64,000 bases of DNA from assembly GCF_044324785.1 (NCBI RefSeq), contig NZ_CP172127.1; one strand, 5' to 3'. Of this stretch, positions 23,039 through 64,000 are shown in pieces; the stretch's first letter is position 1; the number at the start of each line of letters is the position of its first letter. A model generated the notes under the pieces. That model ran no database searches, was not told the DNA's origin, and was given only the letters and a program-made list of their open reading frames with translations. The position numbers and the translations under genes were made by a program. Source of the DNA: Escherichia coli. GTDB taxonomy: Bacteria > Pseudomonadota > Gammaproteobacteria > Enterobacterales > Enterobacteriaceae.

Positions 23039-23219
23039 CCTGCCCGTTGGGAGGTTGTGCCGGATCGGACCAATTTTAAGTCCTGGCTACCGGACGGGTG
23101 GTGCCGCAGGCGGTGCCCTGATCCGGAGAGCAACGTTTCGTACCAACATACGTAAACCAGTATCGACAGGCAGTGTAAGGGTAAGGTGCTGGTGTTGCGC
23201 TCCTTAATAAGGAGAGCGG

Positions 23220-23309
23220 ATGGACACGCTGACACAAAAGTTAACCGTGCTCATTGCTATACTGGAGCTATTAGTGGCTCTGTTACGGTTGATTGATTTG
23301 TTGAAGTAA
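23220..23309 (+). CDS. zorO: ZorO-like type I toxin, 29-aa hydrophobic peptide (copy 1)
   Basis: MDTLTQKLTVLIAILELLVALLRLIDLLK; AAGGAGA SD 7 nt upstream; TisB-like amphipathic helix; below ORF-track cutoff; which copy is zorO vs zorP not resolved. Confidence 0.7.
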   Translation: MDTLTQKLTVLIAILELLVALLRLIDLLK

Positions 23310-23330
23310 CGGGCAAATTGAAACGCATCT

Positions 23331-23354
23331 AAGGGGGAAAACCGCTTCCCCCTT
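23331..23354 (+). terminator. Hairpin terminator after toxin ORF copy 1
   Basis: aagggggaa-aaccgc-ttccccctt perfect 9-bp stem. Confidence 0.5.
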
Positions 23355-23508
23355 TAATAAAATGATTACTGTTTTTATTAATTCATCATATAACTCATTT
23401 TTATTTATAAATTCATCGATTTTATATTCAACGTACCATTTGACCGGGATGTGAATATTTATGGTGGGCTATTGGCAAAAAATATCTGGAAAGTAGATCG
23501 CAGAAAAT

Positions 23509-23589
23509 AAAAAAACCTGCTGGTGAGGCAGGTTCTTTTATTTACTACTTTGATGTTAAGTTACTGATAGTGCAACATGGCATCTCAAC
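23509..23589 (-). ncRNA. OrzP/OrzO-like antitoxin sRNA, copy 2 (boundaries inferred)
   Basis: Same architecture shifted by 608 bp; 5' pairing region differs from copy 1 at several positions and matches its own cis toxin UTR better. Confidence 0.45.
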
Positions 23590-23618
23590 GAACGAATTAT
23601 AACCACCTCTGGACAGTG

Positions 23619-23646
23619 TTGCAATTAAGATAATGAGATTTATAAT
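23619..23646 (+). promoter_or_regulatory. Sigma70-type promoter of toxin mRNA, copy 2 (TTGCAA-16-TATAAT)
   Basis: TTGCAA 23619-23624, TATAAT 23641-23646. Confidence 0.5.
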
Positions 23647-23827
23647 CCTGACTGTTGGGAAGTTGCGCCGGATCGAACCCATTTCAAGTCCTGGCTACCG
23701 GACGGGTGGTGCCGCAGGTAGTGCTCTGATCCGGAGTGCAACATGGCGACTCAACAAACGTAAACCAGTGTCGACAGGCAGTGTAAGGGTAAGGTGCTGG
23801 TGTTGCGCTCCTTAATAAGGAGAGCGG

Positions 23828-23917
23828 ATGGACACGCTGACACAAAAGTTAACCGTGCTCATTGCTGTACTGGAGCTATTAGTGGCTCTGTTACGGTTGA
23901 TTGATTTGTTGAAGTAA
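23828..23917 (+). CDS. ZorO/ZorP-like type I toxin, 29-aa peptide (copy 2)
   Basis: MDTLTQKLTVLIAVLELLVALLRLIDLLK (I14V relative to copy 1); same SD. Confidence 0.7.
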   Translation: MDTLTQKLTVLIAVLELLVALLRLIDLLK

Positions 23918-23936
23918 CGGGCAAATTGAAACGCAT

Positions 23937-24344
23937 CTAAGGGGGAATACCGTTTCCCCCTTTAATAAAGCTATACTCGTCATACTTCAAGTTGCATGTG
24001 CTGCGACTTGAATTATCTAGAGTATATAATTCTATTTGTTGGTTGAATATATTCTGTAGTTCACAATTAAAAATTACTATTACAGGTTCAGGTGATTCGC
24101 CTCGTAATTTTTGCTCATCAATAAACTCATCTCTTATATAAATCAACGCATCATTTATTAGCGGGTCGACATCTTCTCGATCACGTTGATGAAATGTTGG
24201 ACGTAGCCGGAATCGCTCCAGCCGGTAGACGGAGCCTGTAAATAATTCAGAGCGTTTATGGATCTCAAGCCTGAAGGAAAACGGCTCTTCAGGTACAGGG
24301 GCCTCATAGTCGTAAATAGTGACCAGCTCTTTTTGCACGATCAT
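23937..24344 (-). CDS. yehK: Small protein of unknown function
   Basis: 135-aa ORF (MIVQKELVTIYDYEAPVPEEPFSF...) 60 nt downstream of yehI; C-terminal codons lie in the terminator hairpin. Confidence 0.6.
   Translation of the reverse strand: MIVQKELVTIYDYEAPVPEEPFSFRLEIHKRSELFTGSVYRLERFRLRPTFHQRDREDVDPLINDALIYIRDEFIDEQKLRGESPEPVIVIFNCELQNIFNQQIELYTLDNSSRSTCNLKYDEYSFIKGGNGIPP
23939..23962. terminator. Hairpin after toxin copy 2, abutting the yehK stop codon (convergent)
   Basis: aagggggaa-taccgt-ttccccctt; yehK stop at 23937-23939 on the opposite strand. Confidence 0.5.
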
Positions 24345-28046: not shown

Positions 28047-31000
28047 TTATTCAAACAGGGCTTCAATATCGTTAATTAGCTCGCTGGCGGTGATGGCATC
28101 GAGTACGGAGAACTGCGCTTCCTGTGTTGAATTACTCCCCCAGCCATAGCTTTCTGCTTTGCCTTCCCATAGCCACAGCTTGCTTAAGAGTTGCTCGGCA
28201 CTGAGTTCGGCTGGCGACATGCCGACCGCAAAACCTTCATCGATTTCCATGATTAACGACCAGCGGCCCAGAGGTTTGATCATCCAGCCGATCCAGCCTC
28301 CATCCTGCGGGGTGCCCTTTATCCAGCCTTTATTCGCCAGCCCCATGACCCGACCGCTCGGGCATTTTCTGCCTGCCCAGTGGGTCAGTTCGCTGGCGTT
28401 GCGCTCGGCTTCTGTCAGGGCGTAACTGTTACGGTCAAGCTGACGGAACGGTGGTAGCAGTTCATAGTCGGCAAAAAGCTGACCAAAGGCGGCAGCATCC
28501 GTTGGTGATATTTCCAGAACGTGAGGAATGCCGATAGAGATATCGCCTTCCGGCAGGGTGAAAAGATCATCGTCAGCGGTGCTGTAGCTGTTATCTTCCG
28601 CCACGCGAAAGCAAGCCAGTAGCTCGTTTTCGGTGCTATAAACGCCCCAAATCAGACGGCGGGTTAAGTGACGAACCAGCGGATGCTCAACCAGGAAGAG
28701 CTGGAAGTTTTCCGGCGACCAGCGGCGGCGCAGGCACATGGCGGATTCCAGCCTTGCTACCTGCTGGGCGGCGATGGTACGCGCATCTTTTTTCAGCAAT
28801 TTGTAGCGGTTAACAGCATCGTTCGCCTGTGATTCATCATCGCTTTTGTTTGGTTTGGGTAAATCTTTCAGGCGGCTGCCGGAAGCGTCACGCACAAACG
28901 GTTTTAAGGTTTCATCAAAGCTGACGGTGAACTGGCGTGGGCCGAAATCCAGCAGCAACGAACCGTTATCATCCAGACCGAGATTCGGTGCTAACCGATC
29001 TTCAAGCTCCGCCACCGTGAGCTCGCGGCTTTCGGCAATGTCGGCAATTTTCTCTTTCGCCCGCTCCTGTAATGCTTTGAATTTCAGTTTCTGGGCGATG
29101 CCGTTAAGCTGCATCAGGGCGATATCACTACCGATAGCAGCGAGAATATCCAACCCAACGGTGGCGCGTTTATGCTGAGATTCGCCAGGCCAGGCGCGGA
29201 TTAATGGCGTCAGTTTGCGGGCGGTGTCATCGTTGCCGAGAACACCTAACGCAATGAACGCCCAGCTTTCTTTCGATGGCGCGCCCGCAGTCAGCCAGGC
29301 GGTAAACAGATCCCAGGCAAATTCAGCCAGAGAGTCAGAGGTACAGGCATCTTTCACCTGCAATAATCCCGGATACAGAGCCTCTTCCAGAGGGAAGCGG
29401 AGCATTTCACCGAGGTGGAGGAGGGCGTTATCTGGCAGTGATTGGGCGTTTGCTTTTAATACCGGGCGCGTCCAGAGCGATGGCTGATAAAAGGCCGGAA
29501 GAGTGGGGATTTTTGTCGGGTGATTATCTAAGGCATCGAGCGCAAGCAGAGCGTTCACCGCATCTGTTACTTCCGGCTGGTTATAACGCCGGGCGATTTC
29601 TTGCAGTAATAGCTGATGACCGTTTTCGGTAAGCATACGCAAGGCAGCGCGGGCGTTATCCTGTGCTTCACCGGCTTTGCCGAGCGCCGAAGGTAGCAGG
29701 CCGGTAATGGCGTGTTCCGGGTATTTCAGCAGCCAGGTGCGGGCGTCTTGTCGTAGGGTTTTGAGTTTGTTGAAGGCGCGGGCGATCAGTGGCGCTAATT
29801 CGATAGCCGCAAAATATTGTGCTACAGGCAGAGCTTCTTGTGGATAGCGTGAAAAGGAGTGAATAAAACCCTGTAACCCAGCGAGTTGCAGGTGTGTCAT
29901 GACAAACTCGACACCGACGTGTGGCTCTTTACTAAGGACATTCCACGCCTGCGCTGTTTTTTCGATAGGCAGGGCGGCTAACATGTAAAGCTGCCATTCC
30001 CGTTGATAGGAGTGCCAGAAGGTTTTAAATTCGCTGATCAGCGCAGAATAATCTCCCCTCTGCCAGAGTTCTACAACAGCATCAGACGCTTTCATAGAGT
30101 GGCCATTATTCCAGCGATTGAAACCCAGACGTGTCAGGTAGTTCTGAATATCCTCTTTTTGGCCGATGTCTATTTGATGTGCGTGCCAGCGATGCCTTGC
30201 ATGAATCTCTTTTTCTGCCGTCTCGGTCAATGTGCAGCATGACTCCAGCGGTAATGGCGTTAAATCCAATACCGGCATTACAGATTTTTTCTTTTTCGAA
30301 AGCCAGGGCGGTGAGACTAATACGGCAGGCAGCATATCGGCGCTGGCATGGTTTGAGGGCTGTGTCAGTTGTTGCTGGCATGATTTCAGTACGGCAACTG
30401 CGGGTGTTGAGAGCCAGGGAGTGACCTGTTCTGCTAGTGCCGGTTGCGAGATAAGCATCGTCATCAGCATAATGCGCCAACTATTCTCTTCTTTTTGCGC
30501 AAGAAGTTCCGCCAGTGCAGCCAGTGCTGCGTGTGGGAACGCAGCGCAAGCCTTAGTCATTCGTTCATGGCAGCGTTTAGTTTTGCCAGACACACGTATA
30601 AGTAGCATTAATGCTTGTGGGTGATTGATCTCTTCGAGAATACTTCCACAAAGATCAGCATAAGCATAGGGGGCGAAGCGAGCGATTCCGGCAATCCCTT
30701 GCTCCTGCAAAACGGTGACATTCCAGATGCAACCATGGTAATAGTCATTAAAAAGGTCGTACGCGCAATAAGATTCCAGTGCTTTGAGCAAGGAAGATTC
30801 TTGAACAACAAGTTTCAGCCATTCAACAGTTTGGACATTTTTCTGCTTCAGTAACTGTCGTGCGACTTCTTCTGCAATCTCCGGGCGTTCCGGTAGCATT
30901 AGCGCTACCATCGGTTGTTGAACGGGAGGAATATCAGGCAAAGCTGTAATGAATTTATCTACACAGCGTTGCCACAAAGTTTCTTCTGCTAGAGCCAAAT

Positions 31001-31796
31001 GCTTACGCAGTCGAACGTCAAAGGGGGTAACACAATGTGCGTGGTTTAATAATGGCTGAAAAGTAATGTGTATGCTTGTTCTGTGATAAGTGCAATCGAA
31101 CGAGATATATTGCATGGCAATAAACATATCCACGGCAAATTCTAGTCCGTAGACATAGACAATTTCATCCATGAGTTCAGGGCATTCGCCCCAGAATTTA
31201 CGCGAAACCAGACCAACCTGTACAGCCAACGCAGCAGGAGAAAGTGGACCATTAGCGAGAGCTTCATTGATATTCTGCTGCCAGTTAGCAGAACATGCAC
31301 TGAAATCGTATGTTGTTAATTTTCCTGATAGATTATGAATATCCTGACCTAAATTCATAAGGAGGCTGTCTTGTGGTTCGCTTACAGCATCCCCAGGAAA
31401 ACGTCGGGAAGGTAAGGCCTCCTGAGACTTTTTCTCCGATAGATGGATAGTGGAATCATCTGTAAGCCACGGGCATGGTGTCTCAGCAGGTTCAGCAACC
31501 ATACTTTGGTCAAATACGACAGTGGTTTCTGCCACGCCAGTTGTATCTACTTCGATCGTTTCTATTTTGATTGCGGGTTGGGATGGCGAAGATAATTCTT
31601 CCACATATCCCTTCTTCACCTTCTCCGCAATCAGCTTCAGTTCCGCTTTTTCCGCAGCCGCAGTATCAGCAAAGCTTTTTACCTGACTTTGCCCTTTGGT
31701 GCCAACTTTTCCCCAACTGATATGCAACTCGTTTCCCTGTTGCTCAACCGCCCAGAATTTATGTGATTTTTCGCCCTGAAAGATAAAGTGTCTCAT
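28047..31796 (-). CDS. molR: Large WGR-domain + DUF4132-type protein (1249 aa), intact
   Basis: N-terminal WGR-like motif (FQGEKSHKFWAVEQQGNELHISWGKVGTKGQ); C-terminal paralogy with yehI; continuous ORF. Confidence 0.8.
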   Translation of the reverse strand: MRHFIFQGEKSHKFWAVEQQGNELHISWGKVGTKGQSQVKSFADTAAAEKAELKLIAEKVKKGYVEELSSPSQPAIKIETIEVDTTGVAETTVVFDQSMVAEPAETPCPWLTDDSTIHLSEKKSQEALPSRRFPGDAVSEPQDSLLMNLGQDIHNLSGKLTTYDFSACSANWQQNINEALANGPLSPAALAVQVGLVSRKFWGECPELMDEIVYVYGLEFAVDMFIAMQYISFDCTYHRTSIHITFQPLLNHAHCVTPFDVRLRKHLALAEETLWQRCVDKFITALPDIPPVQQPMVALMLPERPEIAEEVARQLLKQKNVQTVEWLKLVVQESSLLKALESYCAYDLFNDYYHGCIWNVTVLQEQGIAGIARFAPYAYADLCGSILEEINHPQALMLLIRVSGKTKRCHERMTKACAAFPHAALAALAELLAQKEENSWRIMLMTMLISQPALAEQVTPWLSTPAVAVLKSCQQQLTQPSNHASADMLPAVLVSPPWLSKKKKSVMPVLDLTPLPLESCCTLTETAEKEIHARHRWHAHQIDIGQKEDIQNYLTRLGFNRWNNGHSMKASDAVVELWQRGDYSALISEFKTFWHSYQREWQLYMLAALPIEKTAQAWNVLSKEPHVGVEFVMTHLQLAGLQGFIHSFSRYPQEALPVAQYFAAIELAPLIARAFNKLKTLRQDARTWLLKYPEHAITGLLPSALGKAGEAQDNARAALRMLTENGHQLLLQEIARRYNQPEVTDAVNALLALDALDNHPTKIPTLPAFYQPSLWTRPVLKANAQSLPDNALLHLGEMLRFPLEEALYPGLLQVKDACTSDSLAEFAWDLFTAWLTAGAPSKESWAFIALGVLGNDDTARKLTPLIRAWPGESQHKRATVGLDILAAIGSDIALMQLNGIAQKLKFKALQERAKEKIADIAESRELTVAELEDRLAPNLGLDDNGSLLLDFGPRQFTVSFDETLKPFVRDASGSRLKDLPKPNKSDDESQANDAVNRYKLLKKDARTIAAQQVARLESAMCLRRRWSPENFQLFLVEHPLVRHLTRRLIWGVYSTENELLACFRVAEDNSYSTADDDLFTLPEGDISIGIPHVLEISPTDAAAFGQLFADYELLPPFRQLDRNSYALTEAERNASELTHWAGRKCPSGRVMGLANKGWIKGTPQDGGWIGWMIKPLGRWSLIMEIDEGFAVGMSPAELSAEQLLSKLWLWEGKAESYGWGSNSTQEAQFSVLDAITASELINDIEALFE

Positions 31797-50797: not shown

Positions 50798-50821
50798 AAG
50801 GCGTTTACGTTGCATCCGGCA
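50798..50821. repeat. REP-like element downstream of fbaB
   Basis: aaggcgtttacgttgcatccggca resembles REP consensus. Confidence 0.5.
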
Positions 50822-50843: not shown

Positions 50844-50871
50844 CGGCTTCCCCCGGGAGGCCGTTTTTTTT
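50844..50871 (+). terminator. Rho-independent terminator after fbaB
   Basis: cggcttcc-cccg-ggaggccg stem followed by T8. Confidence 0.65.
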
Positions 50872-50889
50872 GCCTGTCATTCTGATTAA

Positions 50890-53131
<2,242 letters not shown>

Positions 53132-53552
53132 GGACGGTATATGACTAACCTGTTTGTTCGTAGCGGAATTTCTTTTGTCGATCGTAGCGAAGTTTTAACC
53201 CATATCGGTAATGAGATGCTCGCGAAAGGTGTGGTTCATGATACCTGGCCACAGGCATTAATTACCAGAGAAGCAGAATTCCCTACCGGGATAATGCTTG
53301 AGCAGCACGCCATTGCAATACCGCATTGTGAGGCGATTCATGCTAAGTCGTCAGCCATTTATCTGTTAAGGCCAACAAATAAAGTTCATTTTCAGCAAGC
53401 GGATGATGATAACGACGTGGCGGTATCGTTGGTTATTGCGTTGATTGTGGAAAATCCGCAGCAGCAATTGAAACTTTTACGCTGTTTATTTGGCAAGTTA
53501 CAACAGCCCGATATCGTCGAGACACTAATCACTCTTCCTGAAACCCAGTTAA

Positions 53553-54747
<1,195 letters not shown>

Positions 54748-54822
54748 TTAAAGGAATACTTCACAAAGTATGTTTTAGATTCAGACGAATAAATCCCTCT
54801 GTAACAATAAAAAGGACTATTT

Positions 54823-55107
54823 ATGAAACGCAAAATTATTGTCGCTTGCGGAGGCGCGGTTGCGACCTCTACGATGGCGGCGGAAGAAATTAAAGAGTTG
54901 TGTCAGAGTCATAATATTCCTGTTGAATTAATCCAGTGTCGGGTTAATGAAATAGAAACCTATATGGATGGCGTGCATTTGATATGCACCACTGCCAGGG
55001 TGGATCGTAGTTTTGGCAATATTCCGTTAGTTCACGGCATGCCTTTTGTTTCTGGTGTCGGTATCGAAGCATTACAAAATAAAATTCTGACTATCTTACA
55101 GGGGTGA
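54823..55107 (+). CDS. gatB: Galactitol PTS EIIB
   Basis: 94 aa ([22 protein letters not shown]...), active-site Cys in VACGG. Confidence 0.9.
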
Positions 55108-55110
55108 CCT

Positions 55111-56466
55111 ATGTTTTCAGAAGTCATGCGTTATATTCTCGACCTCGGCCCTACGGTGATGCTGCCGATTGTCATCATTATTTTTTCTAAAATATTAGGC
55201 ATGAAGGCAGGCGATTGCTTTAAAGCAGGTCTGCATATCGGGATTGGCTTTGTTGGCATTGGCCTTGTGATTGGCTTAATGCTGGATTCCATTGGCCCGG
55301 CGGCGAAAGCGATGGCGGAAAATTTTGACCTGAATCTGCATGTGGTCGATGTCGGCTGGCCGGGCTCTTCACCCATGACTTGGGCGTCGCAAATTGCGCT
55401 GGTGGCGATTCCGATTGCGATTCTGGTTAACGTGGCGATGTTACTGACCCGTATGACGCGGGTGGTAAATGTTGATATCTGGAATATCTGGCATATGACC
55501 TTCACCGGCGCGTTGCTGCATCTGGCAACCGGTTCATGGATGATAGGGATGGCGGGTGTGGTAATTCACGCGGCGTTTGTTTATAAGCTCGGCGACTGGT
55601 TTGCCCGCGATACCCGAAATTTCTTTGAGCTGGAAGGCATTGCTATTCCGCACGGTACGTCGGCGTATATGGGGCCGATTGCGGTGCTGGTCGATGCTAT
55701 CATCGAGAAAATCCCAGGCGTTAACCGAATTAAATTTAGCGCCGATGATATTCAGCGCAAATTTGGCCCTTTTGGCGAACCGGTCACCGTGGGTTTTGTG
55801 ATGGGGCTGATTATCGGCATCCTTGCGGGTTACGATGTCAAAGGTGTATTGCAGCTGGCGGTAAAAACGGCGGCAGTTATGCTGCTGATGCCACGGGTGA
55901 TTAAACCCATCATGGATGGTTTAACGCCCATCGCTAAGCAGGCCCGTAGTCGTTTACAGGCGAAGTTCGGCGGTCAGGAGTTCCTGATTGGCCTTGATCC
56001 GGCGTTGCTGCTGGGGCATACGGCGGTGGTATCGGCAAGCCTGATTTTTATCCCGCTCACCATTTTAATTGCTGTTTGTGTTCCGGGTAATCAGGTACTG
56101 CCGTTTGGCGACCTTGCCACCATCGGTTTCTTTGTGGCGATGGCGGTCGCCGTGCATCGTGGAAATCTGTTCCGCACCTTAATCTCGGGTGTCATCATTA
56201 TGAGCATCACCCTGTGGGTCGCGACGCAAACTATTGGTTTGCACACCCAACTGGCGGCTAACGCTGGGGCGTTAAAAGCCGGAGGTATGGTGGCATCAAT
56301 GGATCAGGGCGGTTCTCCCATTACCTGGTTACTGATTCAGGTTTTCTCCCCGCAAAATATTCCCGGTTTCATTATTATCGGTGCCATTTATCTTACCGGT
56401 ATTTTCATGACCTGGCGTAGAGCGCGCGGCTTTATTAAACAAGAGAAAGCCGTTCTCGCAGAATAA
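55111..56466 (+). CDS. gatC: Galactitol PTS EIIC permease
   Basis: 451 aa polytopic membrane protein. Confidence 0.9.
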   Translation: MFSEVMRYILDLGPTVMLPIVIIIFSKILGMKAGDCFKAGLHIGIGFVGIGLVIGLMLDSIGPAAKAMAENFDLNLHVVDVGWPGSSPMTWASQIALVAIPIAILVNVAMLLTRMTRVVNVDIWNIWHMTFTGALLHLATGSWMIGMAGVVIHAAFVYKLGDWFARDTRNFFELEGIAIPHGTSAYMGPIAVLVDAIIEKIPGVNRIKFSADDIQRKFGPFGEPVTVGFVMGLIIGILAGYDVKGVLQLAVKTAAVMLLMPRVIKPIMDGLTPIAKQARSRLQAKFGGQEFLIGLDPALLLGHTAVVSASLIFIPLTILIAVCVPGNQVLPFGDLATIGFFVAMAVAVHRGNLFRTLISGVIIMSITLWVATQTIGLHTQLAANAGALKAGGMVASMDQGGSPITWLLIQVFSPQNIPGFIIIGAIYLTGIFMTWRRARGFIKQEKAVLAE

Positions 56467-56513: not shown

Positions 56514-57554
56514 ATGAAATCAGTGGTGAATGATACTGATGGTATCGTGCGCGTTGCCCAACGAGTCATTCCTGAAATTAAACATCAGGATGAGGTGCGG
56601 GTAAAAATTGCCAGCTCGGGATTATGTGGTTCCGATTTACCCAGGATATTTAAAAATGGTGCACATTATTATCCAATAACGTTAGGCCATGAATTTAGCG
56701 GCTATATTGATGCGGTGGGATCCGGTGTTGATGATTTACACCCTGGCGATGCGGTTGCCTGTGTGCCGTTATTACCCTGTTTTACTTGTCCAGAGTGTTT
56801 GAAAGGGTTTTATTCCCAGTGCGCAAAATATGATTTTATTGGCTCGCGGCGTGATGGTGGATTTGCTGAATATATTGTCGTTAACCGAAAAAATGTCTTT
56901 GCTCTACCCACGGATATGCCTATTGAGGATGGGGCTTTTATTGAGCCGATTACCGTTGGCCTGCATGCTTTTCATTTAGCGCAAGGTTGTGAGAATAAAA
57001 ACGTTATTATTATTGGTGCCGGAACCATTGGCTTGCTGGCTATTCAGTGCGCTGTCGCGCTGGGAGCAAAGAGTGTGACGGCGATCGACATTAGCTCAGA
57101 AAAACTGGCACTGGCAAAATCTTTCGGTGCGATGCAAACATTTAACAGCCTTGAAATGAGCGCGCCGCAAATGCAGGGCGTTTTACGCGAGTTGCGCTTT
57201 AATCAGCTTATCCTCGAGACGGCTGGCGTCCCGCAAACCGTCGAACTGGCGGTAGAGATTGCCGGGCCTCATGCCCAGCTGGCGCTGGTGGGTACGTTGC
57301 ATCAGGATTTGCATTTAACATCGGCAACGTTTGGCAAAATATTACGTAAAGAGCTGACGGTTATCGGCAGCTGGATGAACTACTCCAGCCCTTGGCCGGG
57401 GCAGGAGTGGGAAACGGCGAGCCGGTTGCTGACAGAACGTAAGTTAAGCCTGGAGCCATTAATCGCTCACCGTGGAAGCTTTGAAAGCTTCGCCCAGGCG
57501 GTGCGTGACATCGCTCGTAATGCTATGCCGGGCAAAGTGTTGCTTATTCCCTGA
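56514..57554 (+). CDS. gatD: Galactitol-1-phosphate 5-dehydrogenase (Zn-dependent MDR family)
   Basis: 346 aa; zinc ligands C...H (GLCGSDL...GHEFSG), Rossmann GAGTIG. Confidence 0.9.
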   Translation: MKSVVNDTDGIVRVAQRVIPEIKHQDEVRVKIASSGLCGSDLPRIFKNGAHYYPITLGHEFSGYIDAVGSGVDDLHPGDAVACVPLLPCFTCPECLKGFYSQCAKYDFIGSRRDGGFAEYIVVNRKNVFALPTDMPIEDGAFIEPITVGLHAFHLAQGCENKNVIIIGAGTIGLLAIQCAVALGAKSVTAIDISSEKLALAKSFGAMQTFNSLEMSAPQMQGVLRELRFNQLILETAGVPQTVELAVEIAGPHAQLALVGTLHQDLHLTSATFGKILRKELTVIGSWMNYSSPWPGQEWETASRLLTERKLSLEPLIAHRGSFESFAQAVRDIARNAMPGKVLLIP

Positions 57555-57559
57555 AACCG

Positions 57560-57582
57560 CGGGCCAGCGTGATGCTGGCCCG
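57560..57582 (+). terminator. Hairpin after gatD
   Basis: cgggccagc-gtgat-gctggcccg perfect 9-bp stem; U-tract poor. Confidence 0.4.
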
Positions 57583-57659
57583 GTATTGTGCAAAACAGAT
57601 CATTCACCAATGGTCCCCCTTCGTTTACACTAGCCACAATTGAATATGGGTAAATGACG

Positions 57660-58433
57660 ATGAATTCATTCGAGCGAAGGAATAAGATCATCCAATTAGT
57701 GAATGAACAGGGAACCGTGCTTGTTCAGGATCTGGCGGGAGTATTTGCTGCCTCGGAAGCGACAATCCGTGCCGATTTGCGCTTTCTCGAACAAAAAGGC
57801 GTGGTTACGCGCTTTCATGGCGGTGCGGCGAAAATAATGTCCGGTAATAGTGAAACCGAGACCCAGGAAGTCGGGTTTAAAGAGCGATTTCAGCTCGCCA
57901 GCGCGCCGAAAAACAGAATAGCGCAGGCGGCAGTCAAAATGATCCACGAAGGGATGACCGTTATTCTCGACAGCGGAAGTACGACAATGCTTATCGCCGA
58001 AGGATTAATGACCGCCAAAAATATCACGGTGATTACCAACAGTCTCCCGGCGGCGTTTGCCCTTTCCGAAAATAAAGACATTACTCTGGTCGTCTGTGGT
58101 GGCACGGTCCGCCATAAAACGCGCTCGATGCATGGTTCCATTGCCGAGCGTTCATTGCAGGATATTAATGCCGATTTAATGTTTGTCGGTGCTGATGGTA
58201 TTGATGCGGTTAATGGTATTACGACCTTTAATGAAGGTTATTCTATTAGCGGTGCGATGGTCACAGCCGCTAATAAAGTGATTGCCGTTCTCGATTCATC
58301 GAAATTTAACCGTCGCGGTTTTAATCAGGTACTGCCAATCGAAAAAATTGACATTATTATTACCGATGATGCTGTGTCAGAGGTGGATAAACTGGCATTG
58401 CAGAAGACACGGGTAAAATTAATTACGGTGTAG
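57660..58433 (+). CDS. gatR: DeoR-family repressor of the gat operon, uninterrupted
   Basis: 257 aa from MNSFERRNKIIQLVNEQGTVLVQDLAGVFAASEATIRADLRFLEQKG (DeoR HTH) with C-terminal sugar-phosphate-binding domain. Confidence 0.85.
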   Translation: MNSFERRNKIIQLVNEQGTVLVQDLAGVFAASEATIRADLRFLEQKGVVTRFHGGAAKIMSGNSETETQEVGFKERFQLASAPKNRIAQAAVKMIHEGMTVILDSGSTTMLIAEGLMTAKNITVITNSLPAAFALSENKDITLVVCGGTVRHKTRSMHGSIAERSLQDINADLMFVGADGIDAVNGITTFNEGYSISGAMVTAANKVIAVLDSSKFNRRGFNQVLPIEKIDIIITDDAVSEVDKLALQKTRVKLITV

Positions 58434-60146: not shown

Positions 60147-60316
60147 GAATATTTTTTGGTAAGCGTCAAACATGCGCGTTCTGGCTGTGCGTAACCGGAA
60201 CCTGTGCGAGCACGATGCCGTTACGTGAAAGGCATCGTGCTATGAAGGGAGATTCTATCGATGTGGTCAATGGAAGACGGTCACCTGGGATCAATCCGTC
60301 TCTATGGTTTATGTAT

Positions 60317-60343
60317 AAAAAATAAGCCCGTGTAAGGGAGATT
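60317..60343. other. Candidate P2-type attachment-site core (attL) at chromosome-prophage junction
   Basis: aaaaaataagcccgtgtaagggagatt, 80 bp beyond the 3' end of the integrase gene; matches my recollection of the 27-bp P2 att core. Confidence 0.5.
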
Positions 60344-60422
60344 TAGGGTGTCACCAGTAGGGGCTTTCAACGGTACAATGCGGGTTTGAGCGGCATAAAT
60401 TACCACTGAAAGCCCTTAAACG

Positions 60423-61436
60423 TTACTCTACTGTGGACACTGTGTGGACACTCTCGGCTTCAGTACCACCTCTTAGCGGATTAAGAGAAATGGCGTCCTG
60501 AAGGTACTCTGGCGCAAAATGAGCGTAAACCATAGTTTGCTCAATCCGCGTGTGACCTAGTATCCGTTGTAGCGTGATAATACTTCCTCCATTAATCATG
60601 AAATGAGTGGCAAAGCTGTGCCTTAGTGCATGTGTGGCTTGCCCCGTTGGCAAATCCGGTTTTATTGCTTTCATTGTTCGTCTGAAGCGAGGGTAATCAG
60701 CATCAGGGAATAAAAAACCTCGTTTGTTATCCGCGATCATTTTGGCAACAGCCTCTGAGATCGGGACGGTGCGTGGTTTGTTTGTTTTCGTTTTAACAAA
60801 CGTGACGCGGTTATGGATGATATTTTCTGCTTTCAAACGAGCTGCTTCTCCCCAACGTGCTCCTGTACTCAGGCAAAGAATCGCAATCTTTTTATTGTCG
60901 CCGTCAAGTGCTGCAAGCAGTAAGGCAATTTCTTCCTGTGTGAGATAGCCTGTTTCTGGTTTTTCCTCCTTAAGCCTCTTTGTCCCTCTGATAGGGTGCT
61001 CACCAAAGAATAACTCCGCTTCAATCAGGGCTGTAAACATGCCGCTAATACATGTTAAATCACGATTGATACTCGAAGGTTTAATACCCTGACTTCTTCG
61101 GGTGGCGCAGTACTGGCTGATAAGGGATTTCGTGATTTGAAATGCGCATGGGTCATTCGTTATTTTTGTGAAGATTTCAATTTTTCCAAGATTAGATTTC
61201 CCATGCTCTTCGTGTTTACCCTTTAAATCCCACCAGATCTGTGTCAGTTCCGACAGACGTCGTTTGTCTGTTGGTTTTGATAGCCATTCTTTATTGTGGT
61301 GGTTGTACAACGTGTATTTTTCGAAAGCGACAGCTTCGCTTTTCTTATCAAACTTCCTACGGATGCGTTTTCCGTTACGTCCAGTAGGGCGGATGTCCAC
61401 TTCATATCGACCATCATCGAGTTTTTTGATTGCCAT
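60423..61436 (-). CDS. int: P2-type tyrosine integrase
   Basis: 337 aa; C-terminal catalytic region with R...HxLRH...Y (HALRHSFATHFMINGGSIITLQRILGHTRIEQTMVYAHF). Confidence 0.9.
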   Translation of the reverse strand: MAIKKLDDGRYEVDIRPTGRNGKRIRRKFDKKSEAVAFEKYTLYNHHNKEWLSKPTDKRRLSELTQIWWDLKGKHEEHGKSNLGKIEIFTKITNDPCAFQITKSLISQYCATRRSQGIKPSSINRDLTCISGMFTALIEAELFFGEHPIRGTKRLKEEKPETGYLTQEEIALLLAALDGDNKKIAILCLSTGARWGEAARLKAENIIHNRVTFVKTKTNKPRTVPISEAVAKMIADNKRGFLFPDADYPRFRRTMKAIKPDLPTGQATHALRHSFATHFMINGGSIITLQRILGHTRIEQTMVYAHFAPEYLQDAISLNPLRGGTEAESVHTVSTVE

Positions 61437-61550
61437 CAGAAAACCCTCCGAGTGGTACTTTTTTTGCTACTACTAATCGCTTTTTTCGTGGTGGCTGAAA
61501 TTTAGCCACCAATAGTAGGCACTTGTGATGAATATATTCACGATAAATTG

Positions 61551-61850
61551 TTAACCAGTCTTTTGACCGGAGTGGGGCGACGTTGTTTCGTTTTGCCCAA
61601 AGTGTGCGAGAGCGGGCGCAATTTGCCCGGCTTCTGGAGCTACCTGATCAGTCATGAACCACAAAGTATATTTAGTAAATCTGGGATGTTGTAAGACCTT
61701 CATTATGGCTTCAACTCCAGCGTTTTTTGACCGGCTCTCATAGCTCGAAAGTGAGCTGTAGGCTACACCAGTTAATTCACTGAATTCTTTACGGTTTAAC
61801 CTTTCAGATTCACGGATTAGCTTCAACTTCTCCGAAACGTCTATTGACAT
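61551..61850 (-). CDS. C: P2-type immunity repressor C
   Basis: 99 aa from internal ATG at 61850 (MSIDVSEKLKLIRESERLNRKEFSELTGVAYSS..., HTH), preceded by GGAGT; track ORF starts 72 nt upstream. Confidence 0.8.
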   Translation of the reverse strand: MSIDVSEKLKLIRESERLNRKEFSELTGVAYSSLSSYESRSKNAGVEAIMKVLQHPRFTKYTLWFMTDQVAPEAGQIAPALAHFGQNETTSPHSGQKTG

Positions 61851-61928
61851 AATTACTCCGATTGCGTAATTTCTTGCTGATAGTGTGAAATGTTGTGCTT
61901 CTGGAGTTATCCTTTTAGGCAATAATTA

Positions 61929-61946
61929 GCCATTAGGAGCCATTAG
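61929..61946. promoter_or_regulatory. Direct 8-bp repeats in the prophage lysis/lysogeny switch region (candidate repressor operator half-sites)
   Basis: gccattag at 61929-61936 and 61939-61946, 10-bp periodicity, between C and cox starts. Confidence 0.4.
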
Positions 61947-61971
61947 AAGCACTAAGGGAGAATCGTAGCAG

Positions 61972-62247
61972 ATGAATAGACAGCTTGTAAGCGTGACTGA
62001 TGCCGTGCCTTATCAGGAGTTTGCAAAACTCATTGGTAAAACTCCAAGAGCTGTAAGGGGCATGATTGAGAAAGGGAAATTACCAGTTATTGAGATTACT
62101 GACCCTCAGTCAGTATCGGGGCGTGCTGGTGAATATTGGGTATACCTTCCGGCATGGAATAACGGACTAAAACTGGCTTATGAAAGCCGTCCTAAAGAGA
62201 TTCGTGACGGCTGGTTGATGTGGTTAGGTCTCGGTGAACCACGTTAA
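61972..62247 (+). CDS. cox: P2 Cox-like excisionase/repressor of Pc
   Basis: 91 aa; position divergent from C. Confidence 0.8.
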   Translation: MNRQLVSVTDAVPYQEFAKLIGKTPRAVRGMIEKGKLPVIEITDPQSVSGRAGEYWVYLPAWNNGLKLAYESRPKEIRDGWLMWLGLGEPR

Positions 62248-62428
62248 GGAGAACCGTATGAATGAGCCTCGTTGTATTGCTCAGTTATTGCGTAACGAAA
62301 GCCCCAGGGCGATTGACTTCACCATCACCCACGGTAAGGGGCATAAGGGAATCATTATCCGCACCAAAAAACAGAGTCCGTTAAAAAAGGCTCTGACCTT
62401 TCTGAAAAGCCGGAGGGTATGGAAATGA
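62234..62428 (+). CDS. P2 orf78-like small protein
   Basis: Short ORF between cox and B in the same orientation; start uncertain. Confidence 0.5.
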   Translation: MNHVKENRMNEPRCIAQLLRNESPRAIDFTITHGKGHKGIIIRTKKQSPLKKALTFLKSRRVWK

Positions 62429-62925
62429 CAGTGATGACGCTCAATCTCGTTGAAAAACAACCAGTAACTATGCGCCGGATAATTGGTAAGCATCTTGCCG
62501 TCCCTCGCTGGCAGGAGACATGTGATTATTATAATCAGATGATGGAGCGCGAACGGCTAACGGTTTGCTTCCATGCGCAGTTAAAACAGCGTCACGCAAC
62601 GATGCGTTTTGAAGAAATGAACGACGTCGAACGTGAACGACTGGTATGTGCAATTGATGAATTGCGTGGGGCATTCTCAAAACGCCGTCAGGTTGGCGCA
62701 AGTGAATATGCATATATTAGTTTTTTAACAGTCAGTCAGCGTCGTACTTTATTTATGCATGCCGGATTGACTGAAAAAGAATTCAACCAGCCATACTGGC
62801 GAATTAATGATGAATCATGTTACTGGCGTGATGCTTTATTCCGTGCATTACGTGAATTATTCAGCCTGTTTGAGTATGCACCGACAATTCTGACGTCGGT
62901 AAAACCAGAGCAATATCTGCATTAA
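62425..62925 (+). CDS. B: P2 B-like replication protein (helicase loader)
   Basis: 166 aa from MTVMTLNLVEKQPV...; position after cox/orf78. Confidence 0.75.
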   Translation: MTVMTLNLVEKQPVTMRRIIGKHLAVPRWQETCDYYNQMMERERLTVCFHAQLKQRHATMRFEEMNDVERERLVCAIDELRGAFSKRRQVGASEYAYISFLTVSQRRTLFMHAGLTEKEFNQPYWRINDESCYWRDALFRALRELFSLFEYAPTILTSVKPEQYLH

Positions 62926-62988
62926 GTAATTAACCAGAGTTTTTAACGCACTTAATTGTGCGGGGCTTCTTTTTGCCTGGAGAAAGTC

Positions 62989-63213
62989 ATGCATACAGTT
63001 TCTGAAAATCAGTGCGGTAAATACGCATTACTGCTGCAACAGGCCAGAACCGAAGCACAGGCCGACGCAGCGACGCGCTTTTCTTCTCATCTTGACGCCA
63101 TGATTCGCCACATCACAAAGGCGGAGTTATCCCGCGTGGAGATAGTCGAGCTGCTCAGTCAGGAGTCGGAAAAATTTCACAATATCGGATTGTCTCGTGG
63201 GGAGGTGCTTTGA
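62989..63213 (+). CDS. P2 orf80-like protein
   Basis: ATG at 62989 after GGAGAAAG; 74 aa. Confidence 0.55.
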
Positions 63214-63515
63214 TGTCCTGTTCTCGTTCAATTGTATTACTGAATAACGCCTTAAAAATCGCCGTTATGGAAAATGGCGATTTGTCTCTTATTCAACTTG
63301 GTCTTGATAAAGAAAAGCGCGACATAACTGAATCTGTTATCGCGATTTATCAGAGCGAATTAAACCTCCTGTCTGATGTGATCAATTTACTTGTGAAACG
63401 CGCTGTATTTCACAAGCAAATTTCCTCAGTGGATGAACTGACAAAATTAACGACAGAACTCGCCAGCTATTGCGCTGATGAATTTAAGAAACTGAACGAC
63501 AAAAGGAACTGGTAA
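63210..63515 (+). CDS. P2 orf81-like protein
   Basis: 101 aa, ATGA overlap with previous ORF. Confidence 0.55.
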
Positions 63516-63739
63516 TGCCGGACAACGTAGATTTCATTCAGGAACAACAGGCTGAATTACTGGAGCGCCAGATTAACGCGGCAAGGGTAAAACATTGCTG
63601 TGCTTCTGCGCTGGTTTGCGAAGAGTGTGATGCGCCAATACCTGCTGCCCGTCGTGCGGCTTATCCGTCAGCCACGCGTTGTGTTTCCTGCCAGTCAGTC
63701 TTTGAAGCAAAAAACAAGCATTACCGGAGAATGGCATGA
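63515..63739 (+). CDS. P2 orf82-like DksA/TraR-type C4 zinc-finger protein
   Basis: 74 aa with CxxC...CxxC (CEECDAPIPAARRAAYPSATRCVSCQ). Confidence 0.65.
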   Translation: MPDNVDFIQEQQAELLERQINAARVKHCCASALVCEECDAPIPAARRAAYPSATRCVSCQSVFEAKNKHYRRMA

Positions 63740-64000
63740 GTATTCGTATCGAAATTGGCGAACGTTATGTCGTTACCAGTGACAGCTTTCAGTTTATTCT
63801 CCACGAGAAAAAGAGAGCGGAAAGCGGTAAAAACGCCGGCCAGGAATGGCTGGCGGTGGTTGGTTATTACCCGAAATTAAGCCAGCTCGTTTCCGGCATG
63901 ATGCATCACGATATTCTGACCGGAAGCGCAAAATCTTTTGCTGATTTAAACGCGCAGGTTGAGCAACTCAGCAAGCGTTGTTCAGAGGCTTTTGGCTCAC
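63736..64000 (+). CDS. P2 orf83-like protein, partial (runs off window)
   Basis: ATG at 63736 (ATGA overlap with previous ORF), open to window end (MSIRIEIGERYVVTSDSFQFILHEKK...). Confidence 0.5.
   Translation, partial: MSIRIEIGERYVVTSDSFQFILHEKKRAESGKNAGQEWLAVVGYYPKLSQLVSGMMHHDILTGSAKSFADLNAQVEQLSKRCSEAFGS

Follow-up and report, generated by a model that had tools for sequence, protein, structure and literature searches.

In Escherichia coli, the repressor GatR binds upstream of gatY and holds the gatYZABCD operon off until galactitol imported by the phosphotransferase system (PTS) yields the inducer. The gatR gene of the reference strain MG1655 is interrupted by IS3E, a lesion for which the primary description is reportedly that of Nobelmann and Lengeler in 1996. 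The RefSeq annotation treats MG1655 gatR (b4498) as a pseudogene in two pieces, of 299 and 475 nt, with IS3E located between them (NC_000913.3, 2170171-2171428, genes insE5/insF5). The element is bordered on each side by the triplet GTC, which reads GAC in the direction of gatR and corresponds to a 3-bp duplication, and the predicted truncated GatR product is 110 aa in length. The disruption has been given as the reason why gat expression is high or unregulated in MG1655 (PMC3045373; PMC5094792; bioRxiv 10.64898/2026.01.05.697630), and the K-12 strain NCM3722 has been reported to be without it (PMC3045373). The gatC gene of MG1655 is also a pseudogene, frameshifted and two nucleotides longer.

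The gat locus of MG1655 is known from evolution experiments as well. All of the sequenced clones carried gat mutations, with IS insertions accounting for 79%, and all were Gat-negative (Barroso-Batista et al., 2014; PMC3945185). The mutated sites were in the coding regions of gatA, gatC or gatZ or in the gatY regulatory region (PMC3945185), and the locus has been described as a hotspot for mutation (Lourenco et al., 2016; PMC5094792).

We analysed a stretch of 64,000 nucleotides of E. coli DNA (contig NZ_CP172127.1 of assembly GCF_044324785.1), referred to here as the window, in which a complete gatR gene is found. The positions of the gat genes and of the other features discussed below are given in Table 1.

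Table 1. Features of the gat locus and of the adjoining prophage end in the window
Feature	Position	Strand	Remarks
gatY upstream region	50865..50985	+	Presumed GatR target; consensus matches
gatY	50986-51840	+	Full length
gatZ	51869-53131	+	Full length; 94% identity to the K-12 gene
gatA, truncated	53141..53575	+	137 native codons + 7 IS-encoded (RKVRTSS) + stop; native GatA 150 aa
TTAA target-site duplication, left copy	53549..53552		From the sequence
ISKpn26 (IS5 family), 1195 bp	53553..54747	+	Ends GGAAGGTGCGAAC... / ...GCACCTTCC (terminal inverted repeats)
TTAA target-site duplication, right copy	54748..54751		From the sequence; followed by the last 13 gatA codons (54751-54792)
gatB	54823-55107	+	Downstream of the IS
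gatC	55111-56466	+	Intact, 451 aa; downstream of the IS
gatD	56514-57554	+	Full length; downstream of the IS
gatD-gatR spacer, about 99 bp	57555..57659	+	Stem-loop just 3' of gatD (~57558-57583); weak -35/-10-like hexamers
gatR, intact	57660..58433	+	257 codons + stop; continuous ORF, PF08220 + PF00455, synteny
Unoccupied IS3E target, GAC triplet	57956..57958	+	Codon 99/100 of gatR; BLAST segments to MG1655 overlap by exactly 3 bases
P2-like prophage integrase	60423-61436	-	
P2-like prophage C-type repressor	61551-61922	-	
P2-like prophage Cox	61972-62247	+	
P2-like prophage phrog_235 protein	62419-62925		
P2-like prophage replication-initiation protein	63210-63515		

The ORF at 57660-58433 is gatR and is uninterrupted. 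Translation from the second in-frame ATG (774 nt) gave 257 codons followed by TAG with no internal stop; the ORF list entry begins at the first ATG (57654..58433, + strand), which would give an alternative form of 259 aa. RefSeq likewise records 257 aa for the identical protein of other strains, such as BL12 and PEC41 (WP_001295426.1). In the Pfam search the N-terminal domain matched HTH_DeoR (PF08220; residues 6-58, E=1.3e-16; score 60.5 bits, cut-off 21) and the C-terminal domain matched DeoRC (PF00455; residues 83-236, E=2.5e-51; score 174.2 bits, cut-off 31.8), the effector-binding sugar-phosphate sensor, so that both the DeoR-type HTH and the DeoRC domain of the DeoR/GlpR family were found. 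The original prediction of a continuous 257-codon DeoR-family gene was thus borne out.

The NCBIfam profiles searched contained no equivalog model for GatR, and the best matches were AgaR (232.6 bits) and SrlR (226.3 bits), both below their cut-offs (260 and 350, respectively). Identification of the protein as AgaR or SrlR was rejected on account of these scores and of the different genomic context, and the relationship is that of a paralogue. Since NCBIfam gave no passing equivalog, the assignment as GatR was based on K-12 orthology and synteny. The gene order gatYZABCD, gatR and then yegS on the opposite strand (convergent) is the same in MG1655, and the gat-yegS stretch of the window was collinear with MG1655 positions 2167844-2182000 in reverse orientation, as judged from BLAST and the annotation. 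After removal of IS3E and of one of the two duplicated triplets from the K-12 gene, the two GatR proteins were 100% identical, with six synonymous and no non-synonymous differences between the genes. The GatR of the unrelated strain BL12 was also identical to the protein in the window. The exact protein was found on at least 1000 contigs under record names such as 'DeoR family galactitol utilization operon repressor', which rules out a chance ORF.

Comparison with the gatR region of MG1655 showed the gene to be intact in the window and split by IS3E in the reference strain, with the BLAST alignment broken at the GAC triplet; this site carries no scar in the window. The premise of the original prediction, namely that MG1655 gatR is split by an IS3-family element and that gat expression is constitutive as a result, was correct: the element is named in the RefSeq annotation and the regulatory consequence is described in the three reports cited above for it.

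The frequency of the two states was determined in a sample of 5426 complete E. coli genomes. Any match to gatR was obtained in 5109 of them. A single uninterrupted place covering gatR was found in 4756 (the same figure with the flanks included), a count that may take in genes with a short insert joined into one place (e.g. an IS903B insertion) and that is blind to frameshifts and nonsense mutations. The exact MG1655 gatR::IS3 junction, probed with 300 bp at 100% identity, was present in 342 genomes; the three of these 342 matches that were listed (ER1709, an O16:H48 strain recovered from mouse gut and one other), each of about 4.6 Mb, look like K-12 derivatives. Only about ten further genomes had a partial gatR. 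No match was obtained in approximately 317 genomes, which implies that the locus has been deleted repeatedly in some lineages; one of these genomes, PCP06238, retains the last 82 nt of gatR.

An intact gatR is the norm of the species and the ancestral majority state, and the IS3 lesion is a peculiarity of strains of the MG1655 type. The contrast drawn by the original prediction between the intact gene here and the split gene in K-12 is true, but its framing was inverted, MG1655 being the exception. Because the IS3E split is a lineage-specific lesion, the contrast tells about MG1655 and not about this strain. What is seen at gatR is therefore how this well-known gene normally looks, which is not new and matters little in itself. 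The more general point is that the MG1655 reference is atypical at gat (gatR::IS3E and the gatC frameshift), so that 'differs from K-12' often means 'normal'.

In the window it is gatA that is interrupted. The size of the inserted element (~1.2 kb), its terminal inverted repeats and its 4-bp YTAR target duplication (TTAA) are all traits of IS5/ISKpn26. Its transposase ORF (53621-54613) matched PF01609 (E=1.7e-35) and PF05598, identifying a DDE enzyme of the IS5 group, and also matched the IS5-family profile NF033581 (E=6e-110, 367 bits against a cut-off of 140). The element had been called IS5 in the original prediction; the insertion of an IS5-family element is real, but the element is not IS5 proper. 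It was 99.6% identical (four substitutions and one indel) to the copy annotated by RefSeq as ISKpn26 in BL12, and a junction match carrying IS5 proper showed only 93% identity. A 1-nt deletion near 54584 alters the last five codons of the transposase (...RQWERSQ* is replaced). No second copy of ISKpn26 was found elsewhere in the window, and IS5 was not found in the MG1655 stretches compared. The exact 144-aa product of the truncated gatA is on record as WP_395765627.1/XJR01975.1 and was also found in sequencing run SRR31073010. Together, the IS5-family insertion in gatA, the intact gatC and the intact gatR agree with the original prediction in indicating a different mutational history of gat in this strain.

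The gatZ gene was 94% identical to those of both MG1655 and BL12, against 97-99% for the neighbouring genes, which suggests a divergent and possibly recombinant allele. The gatD-gatR spacer showed no difference (100% identity) between the window, MG1655 and BL12, while gatD and yegS differed by 2-3%. A separate gatR promoter may lie in this spacer, in which the consensus scan gave no sigma-70-like promoter over the threshold. Upstream of gatY the scan gave a promoter-like site, TCGACA-18-CATTAT, at 50921-50950, flanked by inverted 8-mers, TGTCGTTT (50899) and AAACGACA (50968). These 8-mers and the region around them are a candidate GatR operator. No motif of 7 nt or longer that would be a sign of autoregulation was shared between the regions upstream of gatY and gatR. 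In MG1655 and BL12 a REP/BIME-like unit of 78 bp lies between the fbaB stop codon and the terminator hairpin of this gene; the fbaB-gatY spacer of the window (50811-50812) is without it. The proximal part of the gatY promoter region shows conservation.

Among the RefSeq complete E. coli genomes no close match to the window was found, the highest identity being about 98% over 25 kb and 98.4% over metG. Beyond the gat locus, the collinearity with MG1655 stops at ~60291, and positions 60292-64000 are occupied by the left end of a P2-like prophage, where in MG1655 nothing more than the cryptic P2 remnant PR-X (ogrK, yegZ) is located. In the yehH/molR region (28047-31796, - strand) a single continuous ORF of 1249 codons is present; yehH (b4499) is annotated as a pseudogene in MG1655, and the alignment with MG1655 was broken or poor over 29861-31599. 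In the yehK-yehL region (23080-24007) ~930 bp had no MG1655 counterpart except for 216 bp that were 84% identical to the adjacent K-12 spacer; the extra sequence may have arisen by a small insertion or by duplication of the spacer.

From its DeoR/GlpR membership and its K-12 orthology, GatR would bind upstream of gatY and would be released by a galactitol-derived phosphate, and the repressor is probably working in this strain. By its insertion at the gatA TTAA, ISKpn26 deprives enzyme IIA of its last 13 residues and places a 1.2 kb IS between the gat promoter and gatBCD, on which a polar effect may be expected. With gatA interrupted in this way the strain would neither use galactitol nor induce the operon, since formation of the inducer requires the PTS. 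Judged from the sequence, galactitol uptake and phosphorylation have most probably been lost, and the gat operon is probably dead with a Gat-negative phenotype. The insertion could in addition lower GatR levels if part of the transcription of gatR is due to read-through from the gat promoter. We consider it highly probable that gatR is the wild-type ancestral gene and that the lesion is instead gatA::ISKpn26, giving a locus that is likely to be galactitol-negative and non-inducible with an intact repressor.

An insertion that is not inactivating, with the 144-aa GatA keeping its IIA activity, gatBCD still transcribed and the strain galactitol-positive and GatR-regulated, appears quite improbable. 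The PTS_EIIA_2 profile match in GatA (residues 10-132, Pfam) does lie wholly within the 137 retained residues, gatB, gatC and gatD are intact downstream of the element, and IS5-family elements can activate adjacent genes. However, no outward promoter was detected by the consensus scan at the right end of ISKpn26, the element contains terminator-like hairpins and its 1.2 kb of foreign DNA separates the promoter from gatBCD; furthermore, the evolved MG1655 clones with gat mutations, among which are mutations in the gatA coding region, were all Gat-negative (PMC3945185).

We give rather more room, though still as the less likely case, to a gatR that is intact but decaying or irrelevant, being no longer selected after the gatA lesion and owing its integrity to a recent IS insertion. 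The few differences from the BL12 copy of the element are consistent with recent insertion, and PEC41, in which the gat structural genes are heavily damaged by IS elements, still has an intact gatR, as would be expected if gatR were a small target. The absence of non-synonymous changes among the six differences from K-12 shows purifying selection over the longer history, and this reading is in any case compatible with the gatA lesion as the main explanation and bears only on present selection. That the intact gatR is an artefact of assembly or consensus, for example through omission of a collapsed IS, can be given practically no weight. Nothing specific speaks for it; short-read assemblies do break at IS elements, as in a Logan contig with the same truncated GatA that stops at the IS, but the gatA element is present in the window, so IS copies are represented, and gatR is continuous, scar-free at the GAC site and collinear with thousands of genomes.

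The duck isolates BL12, GS04 and BHD6 carry ISKpn26 at the identical gatA TTAA and in the same orientation as the window. Sharing by descent was rejected: differences between the flanking sequences come close to the element on both sides (at 8 and 23 bp on the left, at 87 bp on the right) and amount to 2-3% overall, and the insertions were therefore taken to be separate events in different gatA alleles. An ancient insertion into gatA with later homogenization of the IS copies is formally admissible. The gat operon contains 53 YTAR sites, the chance of coincidence at the same site being ~1 in 100, which hints that the gatA TTAA is a preferred target of ISKpn26. The fuller proposal, in which this TTAA at gatA codon 137 is a preferred target that has been struck independently in unrelated natural gatR+ lineages, is tentative and on balance doubtful. 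If it holds, loss of galactitol use would be favoured time and again, by selection or by mutation, in wild E. coli whose regulation is normal, and would not be only an artefact of the constitutive expression of MG1655, as the mouse-gut work might suggest.

Other natural isolates have different lesions. CUPS04 carries ISKpn26 in gatB and ISVsa5 in gatC (the stretch compared ends within gatC), and PEC41 carries IS1 in gatZ, IS5 in gatC and a frameshifted gatD, with gatR annotated as intact (WP_001295426.1). From such comparisons of sequence, it seems that IS elements repeatedly strike the gat structural genes of natural isolates, including those in which the operon is under normal repression. 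The IS hits in the gat genes of gatR-intact isolates are only a mildly new angle, which may interest students of gat-negative sweeps in the gut. For annotation, gatR should be entered as functional and gatA as a pseudogene interrupted by ISKpn26, with the strain noted as probably galactitol-negative.

Among the closest described systems is the gat locus of MG1655, which has the same gene order and the same orientation relative to fbaB and yegS, with 94-99% nucleotide identity per gene. E. coli GatR (b4498 in MG1655, WP_001295426.1 in other strains) has the same gatD-gatR-yegS locus and the same length, and the gene in the window differs from that of MG1655 in having no IS3E at codon 99/100 and in the six synonymous substitutions. 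The repressors of the amino-sugar and polyol PTS operons, AgaR and SrlR, have the same two-domain architecture as GatR but a different genomic context. In the evolution of MG1655 in the mouse gut the inactivating event was likewise the insertion of an IS into a gat structural gene, gatA included; those events took place in a gatR-null constitutive background, whereas in the window, BL12 and PEC41 the repressor is intact, and the element in the window is ISKpn26. The lesions of the two loci are complementary: MG1655 is without the repressor (and, in the sequenced stock, without gatC) and has kept gatA, whereas the strain analysed here has kept gatR and gatC and carries gatA::ISKpn26.
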